A stretch of 63,987 bases of DNA, filler included, from an uncultured Methanosarcinales archaeon (lineage in GTDB: Archaea; Nanobdellota; Nanobdellia; Woesearchaeales; UBA12501), in assembly GCA_964397315.1 (NCBI GenBank). It is 4 parts of 4 records of this genome, joined end to end, with 100 filler letters (N's around TTAATTAATTAA, not from the genome) between each part and the next. Parts side by side here need not be neighbours in the genome. Positions count along the whole stretch, not along the records: positions 1 to 20,823 come from CAYNHV010000021.1; 3 more parts are not named here. One strand, 5' to 3'. Shown here piece after piece: positions 3,001-18,000 of the stretch. Position numbers: made by a program. Position 1 is the stretch's first letter; the number at the start of each line of letters is the position of its first letter.

Positions 3001-6000
3001 TTGACCATCTAAAATGCAAATCCGTTAATACCACACCAACAGAAAATACTTCGTATTTTCTTAGTTCCAAAAACAAGTTTTGGAACCTTTAGGGTGTGGT
3101 TAGGATTGCTTTATAAGATAATGGTCAAATTTTTATTATTATGGTTTAAAGGCTTTTTCTTTTTCTCCATTTATATCTCCATGAACTTTCTCATCATGGG
3201 ATGCATGTCATACATGTGCTGTTTTGCAATCTCCTCATAAAGTCTATAGACAATCATGACTGTTAGCAGCAGCCCTGTGCCGCTCACAAGGGCCCCTGCC
3301 ATATCAGCTATTGCAGCAAGAAACCCTATTGTTATGGCCCCCATCACATTCAGGGGGGAGATGTACCTGTTAAGCACTTTCTCCAGAACTCTCTCGTCCT
3401 TCCTGAAGCCGGGCATCTGCAGGCCCGAGGATATTATCTTTTTTGCCTGGCTCCTCGCGTCCATGCCCGCTGTCTGAACCCAGAACCAGCTGAATATGAC
3501 ACACCCTATAATCATTATGAGCATGTAAACAAAGCCCTGCGCGTAAGGCTTCCACCCTATCAGTAAAGAGCCCTGCCTTATTATCAGCCCCAGCAGGCCT
3601 TCCTGGCCTCCTGGGACAGTGACCCAGCTTACTACAGACTGCGCATCAACATTAAGCCAGTTGCTCAGCAGCCTTGCCCAGAGCTGTATGTTTGCGAGCA
3701 GGGCTGCCACGAGTATCACCGGGATGTTGGATGTGTATATGAACGCGAGAGGCCATCTTACCCCATGCCCCCTCACCCTGCCGAAAGAGAGCGGAATCTC
3801 AACTTTCATGGCCTGAGAGTATACTGCTATAACAAAAACCACTATTGTGGCTGCAATTCCCGCTACCTGCAGCAAGGCCAGTTGCGAGTTCCCTCCTGAA
3901 AGGCTCTGGAGCAGCACAGGAAGCGCACCTGTTGCATACTCCGGGTTTGTTGGTGACTGCAGGGGGCTCAGCGTTGTTATGAAAAGAGCTTTTGAAATTC
4001 CTGCTGCAATGAAAAGGCTCACTCCAGAGCCGAAGCCCCATTTTGACACTATCTCATCCATGAAGAGTATTGCGATGCCTCCCAGGAACATCTGAAAGAT
4101 TAGTATCAATTCTAGATTAAAATAAACCAGGGTGCCCTTTAGCGATTCTGCAGGAGCCAGCCCGCCCATGAAAACGTATATTATTGACTCAAAGAATATG
4201 AAGAATATGGCGAGAAGCTTCTGGACTCCCTGGAATGTTTTCTTGCCCTCTTCTGAGTTGAGGTCAAACTTGATTATTCCGGAACCGTTGAGCAGCTGAA
4301 GAACGATTGATGCTGTGACTATTGGCCCTATCCCCAGTGATACTATGGATCCGAACTCAGCCCCCAGTATCACTGATAGAAATTCAAACTGCTTGAGGGA
4401 GTTCTGGCCCAGGCCGAATAAGGGTATTAAACCAAGGATGAAGAATGTCACGAGGACTATGACCGTCCACTTCAGCTTTTCCTTGAAGGACAGCCTTTTT
4501 TGAGTTGGCCCTTCAACTTCAGGAAGGTTCATCAGAACCTTTCTTAGCATGGACATTTTATTCCTCTAGTACCCCTGTTTTTTGATTATGCTCTTTATCC
4601 TTATGCTGTTTTTGTCCTGCTGTGTCCTGTTCAGCCTTGCTTGAGCGCTCTTCCTTGGCTTTCTCCGCGAGGGCGACATTTCCCCCTGCCTTTTTTATCT
4701 TTTCAACTGCCCGTTCTGAAGCGCAGTCTGCTTTTATGTTCATTTTTTTCGTGACATTTCCTGATCCAAGGAGCTTTCTGAATCCAAGCCTGCTTATATC
4801 AATCTCGTAAGAGCTGGATTTTTCTGCGGCAGTCCCTCTCTGCGCAAACCCTTCAATCTTGTCATTAAGGTATCCAACATTGACCCCCTTCACATCCTTC
4901 CTGCCGGAGTGCGGTTTGAACCCATGCTTTCCAAAGTAAAGCCTGTTCTTCCATATGCTGGGTTTGTTGGTGTCTGCTCTCTTTCCTGTTCCTGCTTTTC
5001 CCCTGCCTCCCCTGTTGCCGGCACCTCTTCTCTTTTTCATTGATCCTCCGCCGTGCGTCTTGGAGCCCCTGTATCTTGTTAATTTCTTTCTTTTGTGGGT
5101 GGCCATCATATCATCCTCTTTACGAGGTCATTTATCCTATCTCCCCTGTATCCAAGGACACCTCCTCTTGAGAAAGGCGCTTTTATGCCTTTCCTCTCAA
5201 ACCCGCCTCTTGGAGGGTGCAGCCTGAAGAAAGGCTTGGTTTTTTTGCCATCCTTAGGGCTCTTCTCTCCTCTTTTATCTATCAGCAGTTTGAGGGTCTC
5301 TTCATTAAGGTCGCCCCAGGTTATGTAATCCTTCACTTTCTTTATCATTCCCGTGTTCTGAGGGGTTTTTTCCAGCACAACGCAGCAGTTCTTCCTTAAC
5401 AGCCTCATCATCTCAAGAGTTTCCCGTATGTCTTTTCTTATGCCTGTCAGGCCTCTCACAAGTATGACTGCTGCCAGCTCCTTGCTTCCGCTTTTTGACT
5501 CCTTTCCAGCTGTCTCACTCATTTTTAACTGCCCCCTCTGATATCCCCAGGATTTCATTATGGTCAGGCAGGGTTTTTACTTCCATCAGCTTCTTGAGGG
5601 CGTTGAAGCAGGCCACAATGAGGTTTCCCCTGCTTGATGTCTTTCCCTGTGTTTTTGACCACACATCCTTTATGCCTGCCATCTCCAGAATCTTCTTGCA
5701 CTCGCTTTCTATGCAGAGGCCCTTTCCCTTTGGGGCAGGTATCAGCCTGACTTTCACAGAGCCCACCTTTGCCTCTACAGCAAAGGGTATTGAGTGGGGG
5801 CTGCTGCAGCTGCACTGCCACGAGCCGCAACCTCTTCTTATCTTTATGACGTTCAATTTTGCGTTTCTGAAAGCCTTCTCTCTTGCAGGCACTGTCTCCT
5901 TGGCCTTTCCAAAGCCCACACCCACTATGCCATTCTTGTTCCCCACCACTGCGGCTGTTGAGAACTTGGGCTTGTTGCCTTCCTGAGTCTTCTTCTGTGT

Positions 6001-15000: not shown

Positions 15001-18000
15001 CAGCAAAAGACAGCACATCCTCGCCGTTATCATATCTTATGTGGGTGAGGGGAGCTGAGTGGCCTGGACAGTGGAGTATGTCCACAACCGTTCCATTGAC
15101 GGTCTCCCCGCTGATCAGGTTGTTTTTTGCCCTTCCAAGATACCTGAATGCAGGTGCCCTGTATGTATGGCTTCCCTTTCCTCTTGCTTGCTGTATGAGG
15201 CGCTTTCCCATTTTCCTTCTTTATGTCTTTCTCAGCTCACATTAATCCGAGCTCTGTGGCGATGTCTATTGCCGGATTCTCGTTTGAAAACTTTACATAA
15301 GCCCTCTTCTGGCCCTTCATGTTTATGAATGTGTTGACCTTGTCCACCTTCACATTGAATGTTTTTTCAACAGCATCCTTGATATCCTTTTTTGTGGCTC
15401 CCATATCCACTACAAATATCAGCTTGTTCTCGCTCTCCATGAGCCTTATGGATTTCTCTGTGGAAAGCGGGAATTTTATTGCCTGGTGGGCTTCCATTTT
15501 TTATCATTCCTTCTTTGACTGTGTTGGCTGCGCTTTTTTTGACTGCGCGCCTTTATTATCGGACTTGCTTTTTTGGGCTGCTTTCCCCCTGCCTGCCTTC
15601 TTTGCTGTTGGTTTTTTCTTTTCAGCAGGCCCCATCTTTTTCTTGTTTTTCTCGCTTTTGTTTTTGCCCTCTTTTTCCTTTTTTGTTTTCTTCTTTGACT
15701 CCCCTTTGTAGTCTGCTGTGAAAAGTTTTTCTTTTGCAAGCCTTTCCATGGCTGCTTCGGTGAATAGTGCCATCCTTCCAACTTGTGTTCCCGGCGCCAG
15801 CATTTCTGCATTGAGGTTCTGCACTTCTGCAGCATCCAGGCCGGGAATGTTGGCAGCGGTTTTTAGGAGGGGGCATTCCCTGGAAACGACTAATAGCGGT
15901 CCTTTTCTTGTCTTGTACTTCCTGCCTCTTGACTTGCCCCTGCCAGCCCTTATCTTAGACCCTGATGTCCTTTTAAGCTCTTTTTCAAGCCCAAGCTTCT
16001 TCAGGCTTTCCAGGAGCTTTTTTGTCTGGCTTATGCCCTCAATCTTGTCTTCTATAATAAAGGGGTATTCCTTTGGAAGTTGGTGCCCTCTTTTCTCCAC
16101 AAGCTCCCTTGTTATTGTTGAGGTGATTGCTGACCTTGTTGCTTTCCTTCTCTCTTTTGTGTTAATTTTTTTCCTGGAGTCCTTAAACTGCTTTGGGGGG
16201 TGGGCTCTCCTTCCCCCTACTGTTCCGGGTGCAAAGGCTCCGACCCAGTACATCTGCACGCCCCTCCTTGTCATCACCTTTCTTGGAACTCTTGATATGC
16301 CATGCCCGTAGCTTCCCCTGTATTTTCTCCTTCTTCTTGACACCTCAGCAGAGGCCCGCATTCCTGCATCAGGCTTTGCGCCGTAAGGCTGCCTTCTGTT
16401 TGCCTGGATGGCCTCCACAGCCCTTTTTATAAGGTCCGGCCTGACCAGCTCGTTAAACTGGGCAGGAAGCTCCTTCTTTCCTGTTATTGTCTTTGTTATG
16501 CTGAGCACGTCAAGTTTCATTTTCAGCTTACCCCAGGATCACCCTCTGTATTGAGGGCGCATCTTTAGGGATTTTATTGTTCTGCCTTTCTGGAATTGTG
16601 AGCCTTATCATTCTCTTAGATGGCCCTGCAACAGAGCCTTTGAGCAGCAAGAAGGGGTTCTTTACCCTGCCATATCTGGGGAAACCGCCTTTTGGGTTTA
16701 TCTTTTCAATCTCGCTCTCGTCAATCCCTATCTTCATTATCCATTTGTTGTTCTCTTTTCTCTGATGGTATCCTGTCTGGCCTGCATGAGCTATCCTGTA
16801 CATGAAGTGGGCATGGCCTTTCCATCCTCCCAGGCTTCCCGGACCCCTTTTTGTCTTCTCTGACTTGTGAGGCCTTAAGCCTATGCCGAACCTCTTTACA
16901 GGCCCCTGCAGCCCCTTGCCTTTTGTTACAGCATGGGTGTCAACAAGCGCTCCTTCCTTGAATATGTCACCTATCCTTATCTCCTTTCCCAGGATGCTTT
17001 TTGCATACTCCAGTCTCTCCTTGATGCCGCCTCCAACAGCAACCTCAAAAATCTCGGGCTTCTTTTTTCCTATTCCTGTCAGCCTCGGCTGCGTGCACAC
17101 CAGCAGGGTCATGTCATCATAATTCTCTGGGTTGATTTTTTCAAGCTCCTTTTCCTTTGTCTGCTTTGGGAGCCTTATCTTTCTTGACAGGTCCTTTTCA
17201 GAACCCCCTACTATCTCTCCTGCTGTCTTCTTTCCATAAGTGTCTTTCTTGTACAGCTTTACAGAAACCGCCTTTAGAGGGGGGCACTCAAGTATTGTCA
17301 CAGGGCAGGATATGTCCTGGCCCTTTGTCTTGGATGACTTCCTGTTGTCAGTGTATAATACATGGGCCATGCCTGCCTTGTAGCCTGCAAATCCCATTGG
17401 CAGGGATTCTTTCCTGGCTGGCCAGGATCTGACTCTTGCGTACTGCCTTCTAGCCCTCTTCCTGGGCCAGAACTGCATTGACCCTGCTCTTGGCTTTCTT
17501 GTTGTTGGCATTTTCTGATTATTCAGCTACCTTACTCTAAATATCTGATATGGCCGTTGAAGAGACTTGAAAAGCTATTCTAAGCTAATAAGGCCTTATT
17601 ACCCTCCCTTGGATAAAAGAAAGCCTATTTGCAAGCCTTTCATTCAGAATGAATCCATTTACCTTTTGATTTTTCTGAAAGACTCTTCTCAGGCTTATTG
17701 GGTTTTCTCTCGCATTCAAACAGCTTCTCGTCTGTTTAAATACGCCGTAAGGTATGTTTGCGGTTTTTTTGGATTATTTATAAAGGTTTTGGTATTGTGG
17801 GTGCTATGGTGGGTCCTCAAGAAGGATATGCTGGAAAACTAAAGAATATCCCACAGAACAATCCCAACGCACGAGGGGGTAAGCAGAGTTAAGCAGGAGT
17901 CAAAGAATAGTCAAAAGACCAGAACAAAAGTTATTTAAATAGGGCTTGCAGGACGCACGTTGTTATGAAAAAACTGATATTGGCCTTTTTATTGCTTGTA

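Follow-up and report, generated by a model that had tools for sequence, protein, structure and literature searches.

The extensions of eukaryotic ribosomal proteins are conserved and are largely ordered on rRNA or on neighbouring proteins. Among solved structures, uL4 has 328-427 amino acids in eukaryotes versus 246-255 in archaea (with one archaeal chain at 285), and uL22 mostly has 170-203 amino acids in eukaryotes versus 150-156 in archaea (with one at 184). Eukaryotic uS3 chains also outrun the conserved domains by more than most archaeal chains do. All three of these extensions are C-terminal, while eukaryotic uS5 chains have extra residues at the N terminus. Solved archaeal uS3 chains have 186-229 amino acids, with the single exception of a 318-residue chain (entries 9o17, 9znf, 9zng, and 9zni), so a C-terminal extension of about 100 amino acids is possible on an archaeal ribosome.

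Some lineages have low-complexity, lysine-rich tails on individual ribosomal proteins. For example, RpS6 and RpL23a of mosquitoes have lysine-rich extensions that resemble histone H1 (cited in the review PMC11764897), and the last 25 or so residues of uS19 from Parcubacteria are rich in alanine and lysine (PMC9297842). In eukaryotes, the snoRNP proteins Nop56, Nop58, and Cbf5 have KKE/D domains, which are lysine-rich and disordered, and which bind RNA and each other (PMC11528048). Finally, ER/K-type single alpha-helix (SAH) domains are over 40 amino acids long, are dominated by Glu and Lys, lack Pro and Gly, and have an excess of opposite charges at i/i+3 and i/i+4 (PMC5812594).

We analyzed a window of 63,987 nucleotides (four parts of one genome, joined with filler) from an uncultured DPANN archaeon of the order Woesearchaeales (GCA_964397315.1). 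The window includes the S10-spc operon, in which many of the proteins have terminal extensions (Table 1). The stop codons of these tails lie at -47 to +15 nt relative to the start of the following gene; with the tails included, the genes are as tightly spaced as usual.

Table 1. The S10-spc operon and its extensions. Positions count along the window. C-terminal tail lengths are residues past the end of the conserved core, as defined by us; the proteins were assigned with Pfam.
Feature	Position	Strand	Protein length (aa)	Remarks
S10-spc ribosomal protein operon	4558..17511	(-)		ORFs and Pfam: uL3, uL4, uL23, uL2, uS19, uL22, uS3, uL29, SUI1, Rpp29, uS17, uL14, uL24, eS4, uL5, uS14, uS8, uL6, eL32, eL19, uL18, uS5, uL30, uL15
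SecY	3171-4556			Next after the S10-spc operon
uL4 C-terminal tail, 73 aa	15507..15725	(-)	338	Lys-rich, net charge +19; the sole strongly basic tail
uL22 C-terminal tail, 80 aa	13396..13635	(-)	230	Polyampholyte; stop overlaps uS3 start by 4 nt
uS3 C-terminal tail, 68 aa	12593..12796	(-)	268	Net charge -9; final 47 nt overlap the uL29 start in a different frame
uL29 short C-terminal tail, 19 aa	12382..12438	(-)	85	Core-end comparison, Pfam
uS17 C-terminal tail, 50 aa	11372..11521	(-)	150	Polyampholyte; helix-like charge pattern, z = +2.7
uL24 short C-terminal tail, 22 aa	10494..10559	(-)	143	Core-end comparison, Pfam
eL32 C-terminal extension, 77 aa	7406..7636	(-)	202	No Pro or Gly; proximal and distal conserved motifs; predicted single alpha-helix, residues 125-199
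uS5 N-terminal extension, ~50 aa	6223..6372	(-)		K/E/P/T-rich; start overlaps uL18 stop by 4 nt
uL15 C-terminal tail, 36 aa	4561..4668	(-)	183	Stop 1 nt ahead of SecY start

The C-terminal extensions in the operon span 19-80 amino acids and, where compared, reach past the point at which solved archaeal orthologues end. Besides uL4, uL22, and uS3, this is the case for uS17 (solved archaeal chains of 109-114 amino acids, with one at 147) and eL32 (123-161 amino acids, ending at most 10 residues from positions 121-123 of our protein). Solved archaeal uS5 chains begin at positions 49-58 of our uS5, which implies an N-terminal extension, as the first-pass annotation had proposed, of about 50 amino acids. 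Outside the operon, we found extensions on eS1 (~85 amino acids), eS19 (~76), eL31 (~127), uL11 (~101), eS6 (~100), eS24 (~54), eS31 (~28), and eL43 (~32), and the one expected on uS4 is also present (~70). Overall, 18 of 44 ribosomal proteins are extended, and about 15% of all residues in this set belong to extensions; these 44 were identified with Pfam in the operon and among 319 candidate ORFs, a set that leaves out uS2, uS7, uS9-11, uL1, uL10, eL8, and others. The earlier claim that many ribosomal proteins of this genome have K/E-rich extensions is confirmed. For eL14, there is no match in this genome to PF01929, a model that likewise fails in most of the archaeal genomes used as controls.

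Other systems resemble these extensions in part. The 318-residue archaeal uS3 aligns with ours (using phmmer) as far as our residue 263. In those entries, unlike here, the other C termini are ordinary (uL22 has 151 amino acids, uL4 has 253, and uS17 has 109). The eL32 of 9znf has 129 amino acids, and the 161-residue eL32 chain in related entries is extended at the N terminus, unlike the C-terminal extension here. Four of the six termini that we compared (those of uL4, uL22, uS3, and uS5) are also extended in eukaryotes, but the tails of uS17 and eL32 have no eukaryotic counterpart at that terminus. We found no convincing sequence homology between the tails and the eukaryotic extensions. Also, in contrast to the eukaryotic extensions, the tails are K/E polyampholytes and are mostly unconserved, and the rRNA is not expanded: the 23S rRNA is of normal size (2,908 nt over model positions 1-2987). 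So, the proposal of a protein-based counterpart of eukaryotic expansion survives as an analogy only. Like the tails of mosquitoes and Parcubacteria, the tails here are lineage-specific, of low complexity, and rich in lysine. Those tails, though, are on one or two proteins and are described as lysine-rich (Ala/Lys-rich for uS19), while here at least 18 proteins are extended, Glu is about as common as Lys, and the net charge is near zero. And uS19, which is tailed in Parcubacteria, is never tailed in this lineage.

To see if the tails are really coding, we considered 309 tails of at least 20 amino acids (17,296 codons) from 81 operons in 81 genomes. In the real frame, they encode 28.8% K, 19.2% E, 2.5% R, and 2.8% G, with no in-frame stop codons. 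The two alternative frames encode 17.5% and 17.4% R, with stops at rates of 3.7 and 9.3 per 100 codons; from the base composition by itself, one would expect 12.1% R and a stop rate of 5.7 per 100. At the second codon position, A makes up 60% and G makes up 7%. The tails truly are coding and are translated in frame, and their amino acid make-up is under selection. Codon usage in the tails is unlike that of the cores: for Lys and Glu, the tails favour AAA (59%) and GAA (60%), while the cores favour AAG (58%) and GAG (59%). There are also weak tandem repeats, with periods of 6, 12, 24, and 48, in the tail DNA of eL32, uS17, and uL4. Together with the A-ending codons, these repeats suggest that the tails arose by slippage and are under weaker translational selection.

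Extensions of this kind are not peculiar to this archaeon: they are a trait of the order, and partly of the class, and they occur only at certain protein termini. Scoring a tail as present if it has at least 20 amino acids, uS3 is tailed in 78 of 80 relatives, uL22 in 45/81, uS17 in 33/79, uL4 in 28/76, uL15 in 16/66, and uL24 in 11/77. eL32 is tailed in 70 of the 72 genomes measured across the class, with a median tail of 71 amino acids (interquartile range 67-76). Within the family, every member measured is tailed for uL4 (11/11, 32-113 amino acids), uS17 (12/12, 26-76), uL22 (12/12, 18-128), and uL29 (12/12, 14-43). uL14, uS14, and uS8 have no overhang in any genome measured, and the overhangs of uL23, uS19, and uL6 never exceed 2 amino acids. 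On a tree of 77 genomes, the minimum number of state changes is 1 for eL32 and 2 for uS3, versus 19 for uL22, 14 for uL15, 12 for uL4, 11 for uL24, 10 for uS17, and 8 each for uL29 and eL19. For uL29, uL15, uL24, eL19, and uS5, there are no fewer changes than with shuffled labels. In an underpowered test, tails did not co-vary significantly from one protein to another. Total tail length is not greater where the cores are richer in K+E (rho = -0.22) and is larger at higher genome GC (rho = +0.36, both uncorrected for kinship), which argues that the tails are not a by-product of composition.

The tails are of two kinds. Most are conserved in composition and not in sequence: they are Arg-poor, well-mixed polyampholytes. 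Over 17 tails of this genome (1,098 amino acids), the composition is 26.7% K, 24.6% E, and 10.2% A, close to the 26%, 23%, and 10% reported before. The charged fraction ranges from 0.41 to 0.77, and kappa ranges from 0.04 to 0.18, except for the short uL29 tail (0.30). Hydrophobic content is 0-5% in 14 of the 17, and R/(K+R) is at most 0.06 in 12 of the 17, versus 0.33-0.52 in most cores. The summed net charge is about +10, versus about +273 for the cores, and besides uS3, the tails of uL11 (-11), eL43 (-11), and eS24 (-10) are net acidic. The tail of uL22, the one polyampholyte tail that we modelled, is predicted to be disordered (AlphaFold2 block-mean pLDDT of 45-73 over residues 151-230). 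That Arg and hydrophobic residues are avoided tells us only that selection weeds out harmful tails; it is no proof of a benefit. The tail-bearing termini are ones that we take to be solvent-exposed in ribosome structures.

The other kind is the extension of eL32, which has conserved motifs (in an alignment of 70 sequences, the distal consensus is of the type EEKKxxEKKEKDKxLTK). AlphaFold2 models residues 125-199 as one 75-residue helix, with block-mean pLDDT of 93-98 up to residue 170 and 76-88 over residues 171-200. The tail has an excess of opposite charges at i/i+3 and i/i+4 (z = +3.3). The extension is old and conserved in length, and we predict that it is a charged single alpha-helix of about 11 nm. 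In the properties described above for SAH domains (PMC5812594), the modelled extension is alike: it is longer than 40 amino acids, is dominated by E and K, and has the charge excess, 0% Pro+Gly, and a single predicted helix. The remaining tails differ from SAH domains as described there, with 4-21% Pro+Gly and, for uL22, a low-confidence model. We found no report of an SAH on eL32 in the literature. So, of the earlier view that the tails are disordered, low-complexity "bristles" of polyampholyte, the charge statistics and the prediction for uL22 fit, but eL32 does not.

K/E segments are not confined to ribosomal proteins. A 30-residue window with at least 50% K+E occurs in 84 of 1,732 crude ORFs, which agrees with the earlier scan (82 of 1,527 proteins). 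Ribosomal proteins are enriched among them (11/44 vs. 73/1,688, odds ratio 7.4, P = 3.8e-6, Fisher exact test). Other carriers include the exosome proteins Rrp4 and Rrp41, RpoE, a weak match to RpoF, Spt5, a KH/KRR1-like protein, a TRAM protein, a tRNA-splicing endonuclease, NFACT proteins, and FtsY. Spt5 does have an N-terminal extension (~150 amino acids, from a putative start codon 8 nt past the stop of secE), but it is acid-rich, not K/E-balanced as had been claimed. Nop5 and Cbf5 have no K/E tails in this genome.

What might the tails do? We give about an even chance to the idea that these lineage-wide, translated extensions are retained as a surface brush, with a rigid spacer on eL32. 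The Lys/Glu tails would remain in place after assembly and would cover the ribosome with a hydrated, non-sticky brush that might raise solubility and sterically limit unwanted contacts, and the modelled helix of eL32 might hold its conserved tip away from the body of the protein. The chief rival is near-neutral expansion: slippage in purine-rich 3' ends repeatedly makes K/E runs, selection removes only the versions that do harm (those that are rich in Arg, are hydrophobic, or sit at termini that are buried or functional), and the survivors are functionless passengers. The distinct codon usage and the rapid turnover of the sporadic tails keep this alternative alive. It would also account for the many independent gains or losses, for sporadic tails that are spread like shuffled labels, for sequences that are unconserved except in composition, for the weak repeats, and for the K/E windows on many unrelated proteins. 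But the eL32 and uS3 tails are class-wide with few state changes, the length and motifs of eL32 are tightly kept, the uL4, uS17, and uL22 tails are fixed in the family, and tail length does not track core composition or AT-richness. Also, it would be difficult to explain as pure junk something that takes up about 15% of the residues in such abundant proteins, in a genome of 1.47 Mb. We consider near-neutral expansion possible, if somewhat doubtful.

Alternatively, the Lys-rich tails might touch rRNA or nascent pre-rRNA, or keep basic ribosomal proteins soluble before assembly, and they could co-localise translation with RNA processing. Like KKE/D domains (PMC11528048), the tails are mostly C-terminal, low-complexity, rich in K and E/D, and found on ribosome-making or RNA machinery; the K/E segments on RNA-related proteins, the basic tail of uL4, and the basic patch in 34 of 78 uS3 tails fit as well. 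Yet the tails here, unlike KKE/D domains, are on the ribosomal proteins themselves, and the homologs of the eukaryotic carriers are tail-less. The near-zero net charge does not offset that of the cores, several tails are acidic, Arg (a stronger RNA binder) is avoided, and the normal 23S rRNA leaves no loss of rRNA to compensate for. We view this role as improbable. It is very unlikely that the tails matter mainly as mRNA, with purine-rich, unstructured spacers that aid translational coupling or help ribosomes to load onto the next cistron, and with the peptide incidental. Tail DNA is 74% purine, and next-gene signals do lie within the tail ends (in the genus of this archaeon, the last residues of the uL22 tail are GGEKK, followed by the 4-nt overlap with the uS3 start). 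But RNA function would not need frame-specific selection (K/E in frame, about 17% R out of frame), the eL32 motifs are kept at the peptide level, and eS1, eS6, and uS4, on other contigs, are also tailed. We give almost no credence to errors of assembly or annotation, or to lost stop codons in a metagenome-assembled genome. Low-complexity DNA is prone to misassembly, but in-frame extensions recur across genomes that were assembled independently (in up to 78 of 80), the tails lack in-frame stops and abut the next starts, and an atlas cluster of 1,987 eL32 proteins has a representative of 196 amino acids.

Overall, the earlier interpretation is partly supported. We found no prior description of such tails on ribosomal proteins in the literature. 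If the brush and the spacer are retained on the ribosome, then the tails would form an outer protein layer of the ribosome that was previously undescribed.

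The window comes from a DPANN archaeon with a genome of 1.47 Mb (61 contigs, 93% complete). Contig C21, which carries the archaeal S10-spc ribosomal operon, makes up positions 1-20823. Features at 20824-63987 have no physical linkage to the operon because they come from further contigs of this genome, which are placed end to end. Among sequencing runs, three DNA runs from a single microbial-mat study contain the stretch, and two of these may be its source; no RNA run was listed.

Several ribosomal proteins in the operon continue past the ends of their Pfam domains or conserved cores. 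These C-terminal overhangs are 73 amino acids in uL4, 80 in uL22, 68 in uS3, 19 in uL29, 50 in uS17, 22 in uL24, 77 in eL32, and 36 in uL15. Another 15 products of the operon (13 ribosomal proteins, SUI1, and Rpp29) stop at the core. uS5 also has its C-terminus at the core, and its extension is N-terminal.

To cover the whole genome, we chose 319 of 1,732 crude ORFs that were small and basic or that had a K/E-rich window, and we scanned them with Pfam. With the operon included, the total came to 44 identified ribosomal proteins, of which 18 are extended. The extended proteins from beyond the window are eS1, eS19, eL31, uL11, eS6, uS4, eS24, eS31, and eL43. The 17 C-terminal tails add up to 1,098 amino acids (26.7% K, 24.6% E, 10.2% A, and 3.4% D), and if the N-terminal ~48 amino acids of uS5 are included, extensions account for about 15% of all residues in these 44 proteins. 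Windows of 30 amino acids with at least 50% K+E are present in 84 of the 1,732 crude ORFs and are enriched in the ribosomal proteins (11/44 vs. 73/1,688; 7.4-fold, P = 3.8e-6). The first-pass annotation had reported widespread K/E tails, and our recount agrees closely with its figures for extension, composition, and K/E windows. It had also named eL14. We found no match to PF01929 in this genome, and the same model also fails in most of the archaeal controls.

We compared six of the proteins (eL32, uL22, uL4, uS17, uS3, and uS5) with every solved ribosome chain. Solved archaeal eL32 chains are 123-161 amino acids long, and their ends lie no more than 10 residues from query position 121-123; the extra residues of a 240-amino-acid solved form are N-terminal. 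Solved archaeal chains have 150-156 amino acids for uL22 (and one of 184), 246-255 for uL4 (and one of 285), 109-114 for uS17 (and one of 147), and 186-229 for uS3 (with one entry family of 318). For uS5, they begin at query residue 49-58, which implies an N-terminal extension of about 50 amino acids here, given that the length of any N-terminal extension hinges on the choice of start codon. The uS3 tail had no matches among solved chains at E up to 1, and when we searched a collection of 5.8 billion proteins with eL32 region 122-202, the query itself was the sole return. Searches with tails alone are not usable because the sequences are too compositionally biased.

Most of the tails lack conserved sequence, and by composition the tails of this genome are strong, well-mixed polyampholytes, with high charge, low kappa, near-neutral net charge, and few hydrophobic residues. 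Across the 17 tails, the charged fraction is 0.41-0.77 and kappa is 0.04-0.18 (0.30 in the 19-residue uL29 tail). Net charge per residue ranges from -0.34 to +0.26 and sums to about +10 over 1,098 amino acids; uL4 has the sole strongly basic tail (+0.26 per residue). Hydrophobic residues make up 0-5% of 14 of the 17 tails. Arginine is avoided: R/(K+R) is at most 0.06 in 12 of the 17 tails, as compared to 0.33-0.52 in most cores. Across the genomes measured, 34 of 78 uS3 tails contain a basic patch, defined as 8 consecutive residues with at least 6 K/R, as compared to 2 of 45 uL22 tails.

The eL32 tail is of a different kind. Proline plus glycine make up 4-21% of the other tails but 0% of this one (the median across 70 relatives is 2.7%). 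Its 77 amino acids have the composition K32 E22, with an excess of opposite charges at i/i+3 and i/i+4 (z = +3.3). An alignment of 70 sequences shows two conserved motifs, one proximal and one distal, the latter with the consensus EEKKxxEKKEKDKxLTK. Judged by sequence, the extension matches the definition of an ER/K single alpha-helix, and AlphaFold2 predicts one continuous helix at residues 125-199, with block-mean pLDDT of 93-98 up to residue 170 and 76-88 at 171-200. At 1.5 Å per residue, the predicted helix would be about 11 nm long. We also modeled the uL22 tail, as the only example of the disordered type (59-sequence alignment). Its block-mean pLDDT is 45-73; the model has a weak helix at residues 157-185, followed by coil. 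The earlier description of the tails as disordered and of low complexity agrees with the prediction for uL22 but not with eL32, with its conserved motifs and predicted helix.

Are the tails really translated? Purine-rich DNA could stay open by chance, so we examined the reading frames of 309 tails of at least 20 amino acids (17,296 codons from 81 operons). The true frame has no stops and encodes 28.8% K, 19.2% E, 2.5% R, and 2.8% G. The two alternative frames encode 17.5% and 17.4% R and contain 3.7 and 9.3 stops in every 100 codons, and base composition alone predicts 12.1% R, 5.3% G, and 5.7 stops per 100 codons. At codon position 2, 60% of bases are A and just 7% are G. These differences from the other frames and from the base expectation imply that the frame is maintained and that the amino-acid composition is selected (Lys over Arg, and Glu over Gly). 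The tails prefer AAA (59%) and GAA (60%) for Lys and Glu, while the cores prefer AAG (58%) and GAG (59%). The DNA encoding the eL32 tail has weak tandem repeats whose periods are multiples of 3.

The stop codons of the tails lie from -47 to +15 nt from the next start codon, so the usual tight cistron junctions are kept at the tail ends. In the window's operon, uL22/uS3 and uL18/uS5 each overlap by 4 nt, eL32 and eL19 are 6 nt apart, and uL15 and SecY are 1 nt apart. The uS3 tail shares its final 47 nt with the likely start of uL29, which is read in a different frame, so this stretch encodes two proteins; uL29 in turn overlaps the start of SUI1 by 8 nt. Within the genus, the uL22 tail always ends in GGEKK just before the 4-nt overlap with the start of uS3, and many relatives have EKK or DKK at this position. 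The last codons of the uL22 tail probably also provide uS3 with its ribosome-binding signal.

Coordinates of features in the window and of the other loci discussed
Feature	Position	Strand	Remark
S10-spc operon, uL3	16528-17511	minus	beginning of the operon
S10-spc operon, uL15	4558-5109	minus	followed by SecY
End of uL22 tail	13393-13410	minus	compared with L002-L004 (loci from relatives)
Overlap of uS3 tail and uL29	12590-12636	minus	likely uL29 start at 12636
Predicted membrane/secreted protein	17965-18624	opposite to operon	219 aa; just upstream of operon
tRNA gene	32100-32216		Rfam
tRNA gene	39169-39242		Rfam
tRNA gene	54639-54729		Rfam
tRNA-Met	54638-54730		ARAGORN
Low-GC block	~40000-48000		30-36% GC vs. 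~46% elsewhere
Methyltransferase	41089-41718		low-GC block
NUDIX protein	42163-42630		low-GC block
Radical-SAM/SPASM enzyme	42627-43826		low-GC block
Radical-SAM/SPASM enzyme	44263-45456		low-GC block
A-type ATPase B subunit	C1 (another contig): 28492-30042		516 aa
secE and Spt5 neighborhood	C3 (another contig): 107143-107340, 107348-108265, 105978-107150		Spt5 starts 8 nt after secE
eL32 of Jordarchaeum record (Asgard)	L274: 180-962		260 aa

A few other features of the window are listed in the table. The C-terminal half of the 219-amino-acid protein is charged and helix-rich, and the protein has a weak match to the SHOCT domain. The low-GC block may be an island of foreign origin for modifying peptides or sugars. 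Two of the three tRNA genes probably contain introns, as they are 117 and 91 nt long; ARAGORN made a single tRNA call in the window, the tRNA-Met at 54638-54730, which is the Rfam gene at 54639-54729.

We then considered how the tails are distributed. We found uL22 first in 40 relatives and, in a second round, in 150 genomes of the phylum. Of the 80 whole operons that we retrieved, 3 belong to the same genus, 12 to the same family, 39 to other families within the order, and 26 to other orders within the class. The overhang was measured for every gene, and a tail was considered present if it had at least 20 amino acids, which is an arbitrary threshold. With FastTree, we also inferred a tree of 77 genomes from 12 cores that never carry the tails, concatenated into 2,329 columns.

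Presence of tails (at least 20 amino acids) across genomes, and minimum number of changes in presence on a quick tree whose errors inflate these counts
Protein	Genomes with tail	Minimum changes	Changes with shuffled labels
eL32	70/72 (median 71 aa, IQR 67-76)	1	not shuffled
uS3	78/80	2	not shuffled
uL22	45/81	19	mean 25.7, min 19
uS17	33/79	10	mean 24.5, min 18
uL4	28/76	12	mean 22.1, min 16
uL15	16/66	14	observed no lower than shuffled
uL24	11/77	11	observed no lower than shuffled
uL29	10/73	8	observed no lower than shuffled
eL19	8/73	8	observed no lower than shuffled
uS5 (C-terminus)	6/74	5	observed no lower than shuffled

These data show that the tails of eL32 and uS3 are old and that the others are young and recurrent. 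Despite the limits of the tree, tails have clearly been gained or lost repeatedly. Among measured members of the window's family, tails are carried by 11/11 for uL4 (32-113 amino acids), 12/12 for uS17 (26-76), and 12/12 for uL22 (18-128). The summed length of eight variable tails shrinks with distance: it is 280 amino acids in the window, and the medians are 227 in the genus, 205 in the family, 121 in the order, and 56 in other orders. Some proteins carry no tails: in every genome measured, the overhang was 0 for uL14, uS14, and uS8, and at most 2 amino acids for uL23, uS19, and uL6. Comparing independent pairs for co-variation of tails is underpowered, and the best case was uL4-uL22 (4.2 in the same direction vs. 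0.3 in the opposite direction; median P = 0.125). AT-rich or Lys-rich genome composition is not supported as a driver: the correlation of total tail length, uncorrected for phylogeny, is +0.36 with the GC content of the locus and -0.22 with the K+E content of the core.

Beyond these relatives, the nearest eL32 clusters in a protein atlas have representatives of 196 amino acids (1,987 and 178 members) and are commonest in Woesearchaeota; another cluster, whose representative has 166 amino acids, is commonest in Aenigmatarchaeota and is the one hint from other DPANN phyla. In another archaeal phylum, reached via a Jordarchaeum record, uL22 open frames have 156-211 amino acids, and just 2 of 40 exceed 200. 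In the Jordarchaeum record, eL32 has about 125 additional C-terminal amino acids of a different kind, which implies that this terminus was extended independently in another archaeal lineage. The Jordarchaeum extension has an acidic stretch, then a helix-hairpin-helix-like segment, and then a Lys-rich end.

K/E segments are not limited to ribosomal proteins. They are also found in the exosome subunits Rrp4 and Rrp41, RpoE, a weak match to RpoF, a KH/KRR1-like protein, a TRAM protein, the tRNA-splicing endonuclease, NFACT proteins, and FtsY. Because the B subunit of the A-ATPase, ScpB, a HIT protein, and HSP20 have them as well, and these are unrelated to RNA, K/E segments extend past the RNA machinery. 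In the ATPase subunit, the K/E-rich C-terminal tail has about 50 amino acids (residues 458-508). The first-pass annotation had included Spt5 with an N-terminal extension. An extension of about 150 amino acids is predicted, but it is rich in acidic residues, Ser, and Pro rather than K/E-balanced. In FtsZ, which neighbors Spt5, the predicted N-terminal extension is also acidic and comprises about 50 amino acids.

Lineage-specific tails on ribosomal proteins are already known, from eukaryotic extensions, from mosquito RpS6 and RpL23a, whose Lys-rich tails resemble histone H1 (cited in PMC11764897), and from the Ala/Lys-rich end of uS19 in Parcubacteria (PMC9297842). H1-like tails are rich in Lys, Ala, and Pro, are strongly positive, and have few acidic residues, while the tails described here have 24.6% E and a net charge of about zero overall. 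ER/K single alpha-helices are described as rigid connectors (PMC5812594). The eL32 tail has their sequence features (at least 40 residues that are rich in E/K/R, a salt-bridge pattern, and no helix breakers); most of the other tails do not, given their Pro+Gly content. Our full-text searches, which covered the main text of freely readable papers, returned no account of K/E tails on DPANN ribosomal proteins or of the other features reported here. Three aspects are new: the number of proteins involved (at least 18), the balanced K/E chemistry that recurs across a whole archaeal order, and the predicted single helix of eL32.

The tails had been proposed as a counterpart of the eukaryotic expansion of rRNA and ribosomal proteins. 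In 4 of the 6 proteins compared (uL4, uL22, uS3, and uS5), the eukaryotic extension is at the same terminus, but the extension of eukaryotic uS17 is N-terminal and eukaryotic eL32 has none, while the tails here are C-terminal. We did not find homology to the eukaryotic extensions: the alignments mostly end at the core, although some for uL22 reach query residue 177 through charged sequence. Also, the 23S rRNA, as judged by length and model coverage, is of normal size (2,908 nt, spanning the whole archaeal model, positions 1-2987), so the tails do not make up for missing rRNA, and they are not accompanied by expansion segments.

Our proposed mechanism builds on the in-frame translation of the tails, their selected composition, and their restriction to certain termini. 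We take the termini that accept tails to be exposed to solvent, and the termini that are never tailed are presumably buried or functional (at the subunit interface, the decoding site, the factor site, or the tunnel-exit docking site). The tails would remain attached to mature ribosomes and form a brush that is hydrated, poor in Arg, and non-sticky, and the eL32 helix would be a spacer that keeps its conserved tip away from the eL32 body. We give this mechanism as a whole, with a retained brush and an eL32 spacer, an even chance of being correct. The main rival is that most tails are nearly neutral products of slippage that are tolerated, a view favored by their fast turnover and by the difference in codon usage between tails and cores. 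But the tails of eL32 and uS3 persist across the class with constant length, tails are fixed within the family, and synthesizing them is a cost in a streamlined genome, so this explanation, while possible, seems somewhat unlikely.

The tails might instead be directed at RNA or at assembly, much like the lysine-rich KKE/D domains at the C-termini of eukaryotic Nop56, Nop58, and Cbf5 (PMC11528048). Both are Lys-rich, C-terminal, low-complexity sequences with Glu or Asp. However, the near-zero net charge of the tails and their avoidance of Arg weaken this idea, which we consider possible but unlikely. The snoRNP proteins of this genome differ as well: Nop5 (361 amino acids) and Cbf5 (328 amino acids) end without a K/E tail, which rules out KKE/D-like tails on these proteins here. 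Two other explanations are ruled out: neutralization of the basic cores, by the summed net charges of about +273 for cores and +10 for tails, and compensation for reduced rRNA, by the 23S.

Returning to the retained brush, a broader and unlikely reading joins it to the other observations: a protein-only expansion layer on a normal-sized ribosome, with a docking eL32 spar and a shared K/E neighborhood. The layer would comprise about 1,100 extra residues per ribosome (in the examined proteins), gained repeatedly and independently, partly at termini that are also extended in eukaryotes. The conserved, predicted ~11-nm spar of eL32 would dock a partner with its tip. And the K/E code that the tails have in common with the exosome, subunits of RNA polymerase, Spt5, and further proteins that handle RNA would mark a shared electrostatic neighborhood, for example by weak co-clustering of the machinery for transcription, translation, and RNA decay, or by reversible packing of ribosomes in dormancy. 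If true, this would be a prokaryotic and convergent counterpart of both the elaboration of the eukaryotic ribosome's surface and the lysine-rich disordered regions of the nucleolus.

Extensions of ribosomal proteins are usually seen as an elaboration typical of eukaryotes or, in organelles, as making up for lost rRNA. Here, a large uncultivated lineage of archaea with small genomes and a normal 23S has about 15% of the residues of its examined ribosomal proteins in charged tails. For DPANN phylogeny, the tails lengthen ribosomal proteins and put low-complexity columns into marker alignments. The extension of eL32, present in 70 of the 72 genomes measured, offers a concrete structural prediction, a single helix of 75 residues. 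And the tens of gain or loss events across 77 genomes are a natural series on how surface polyampholytes affect the ribosome.
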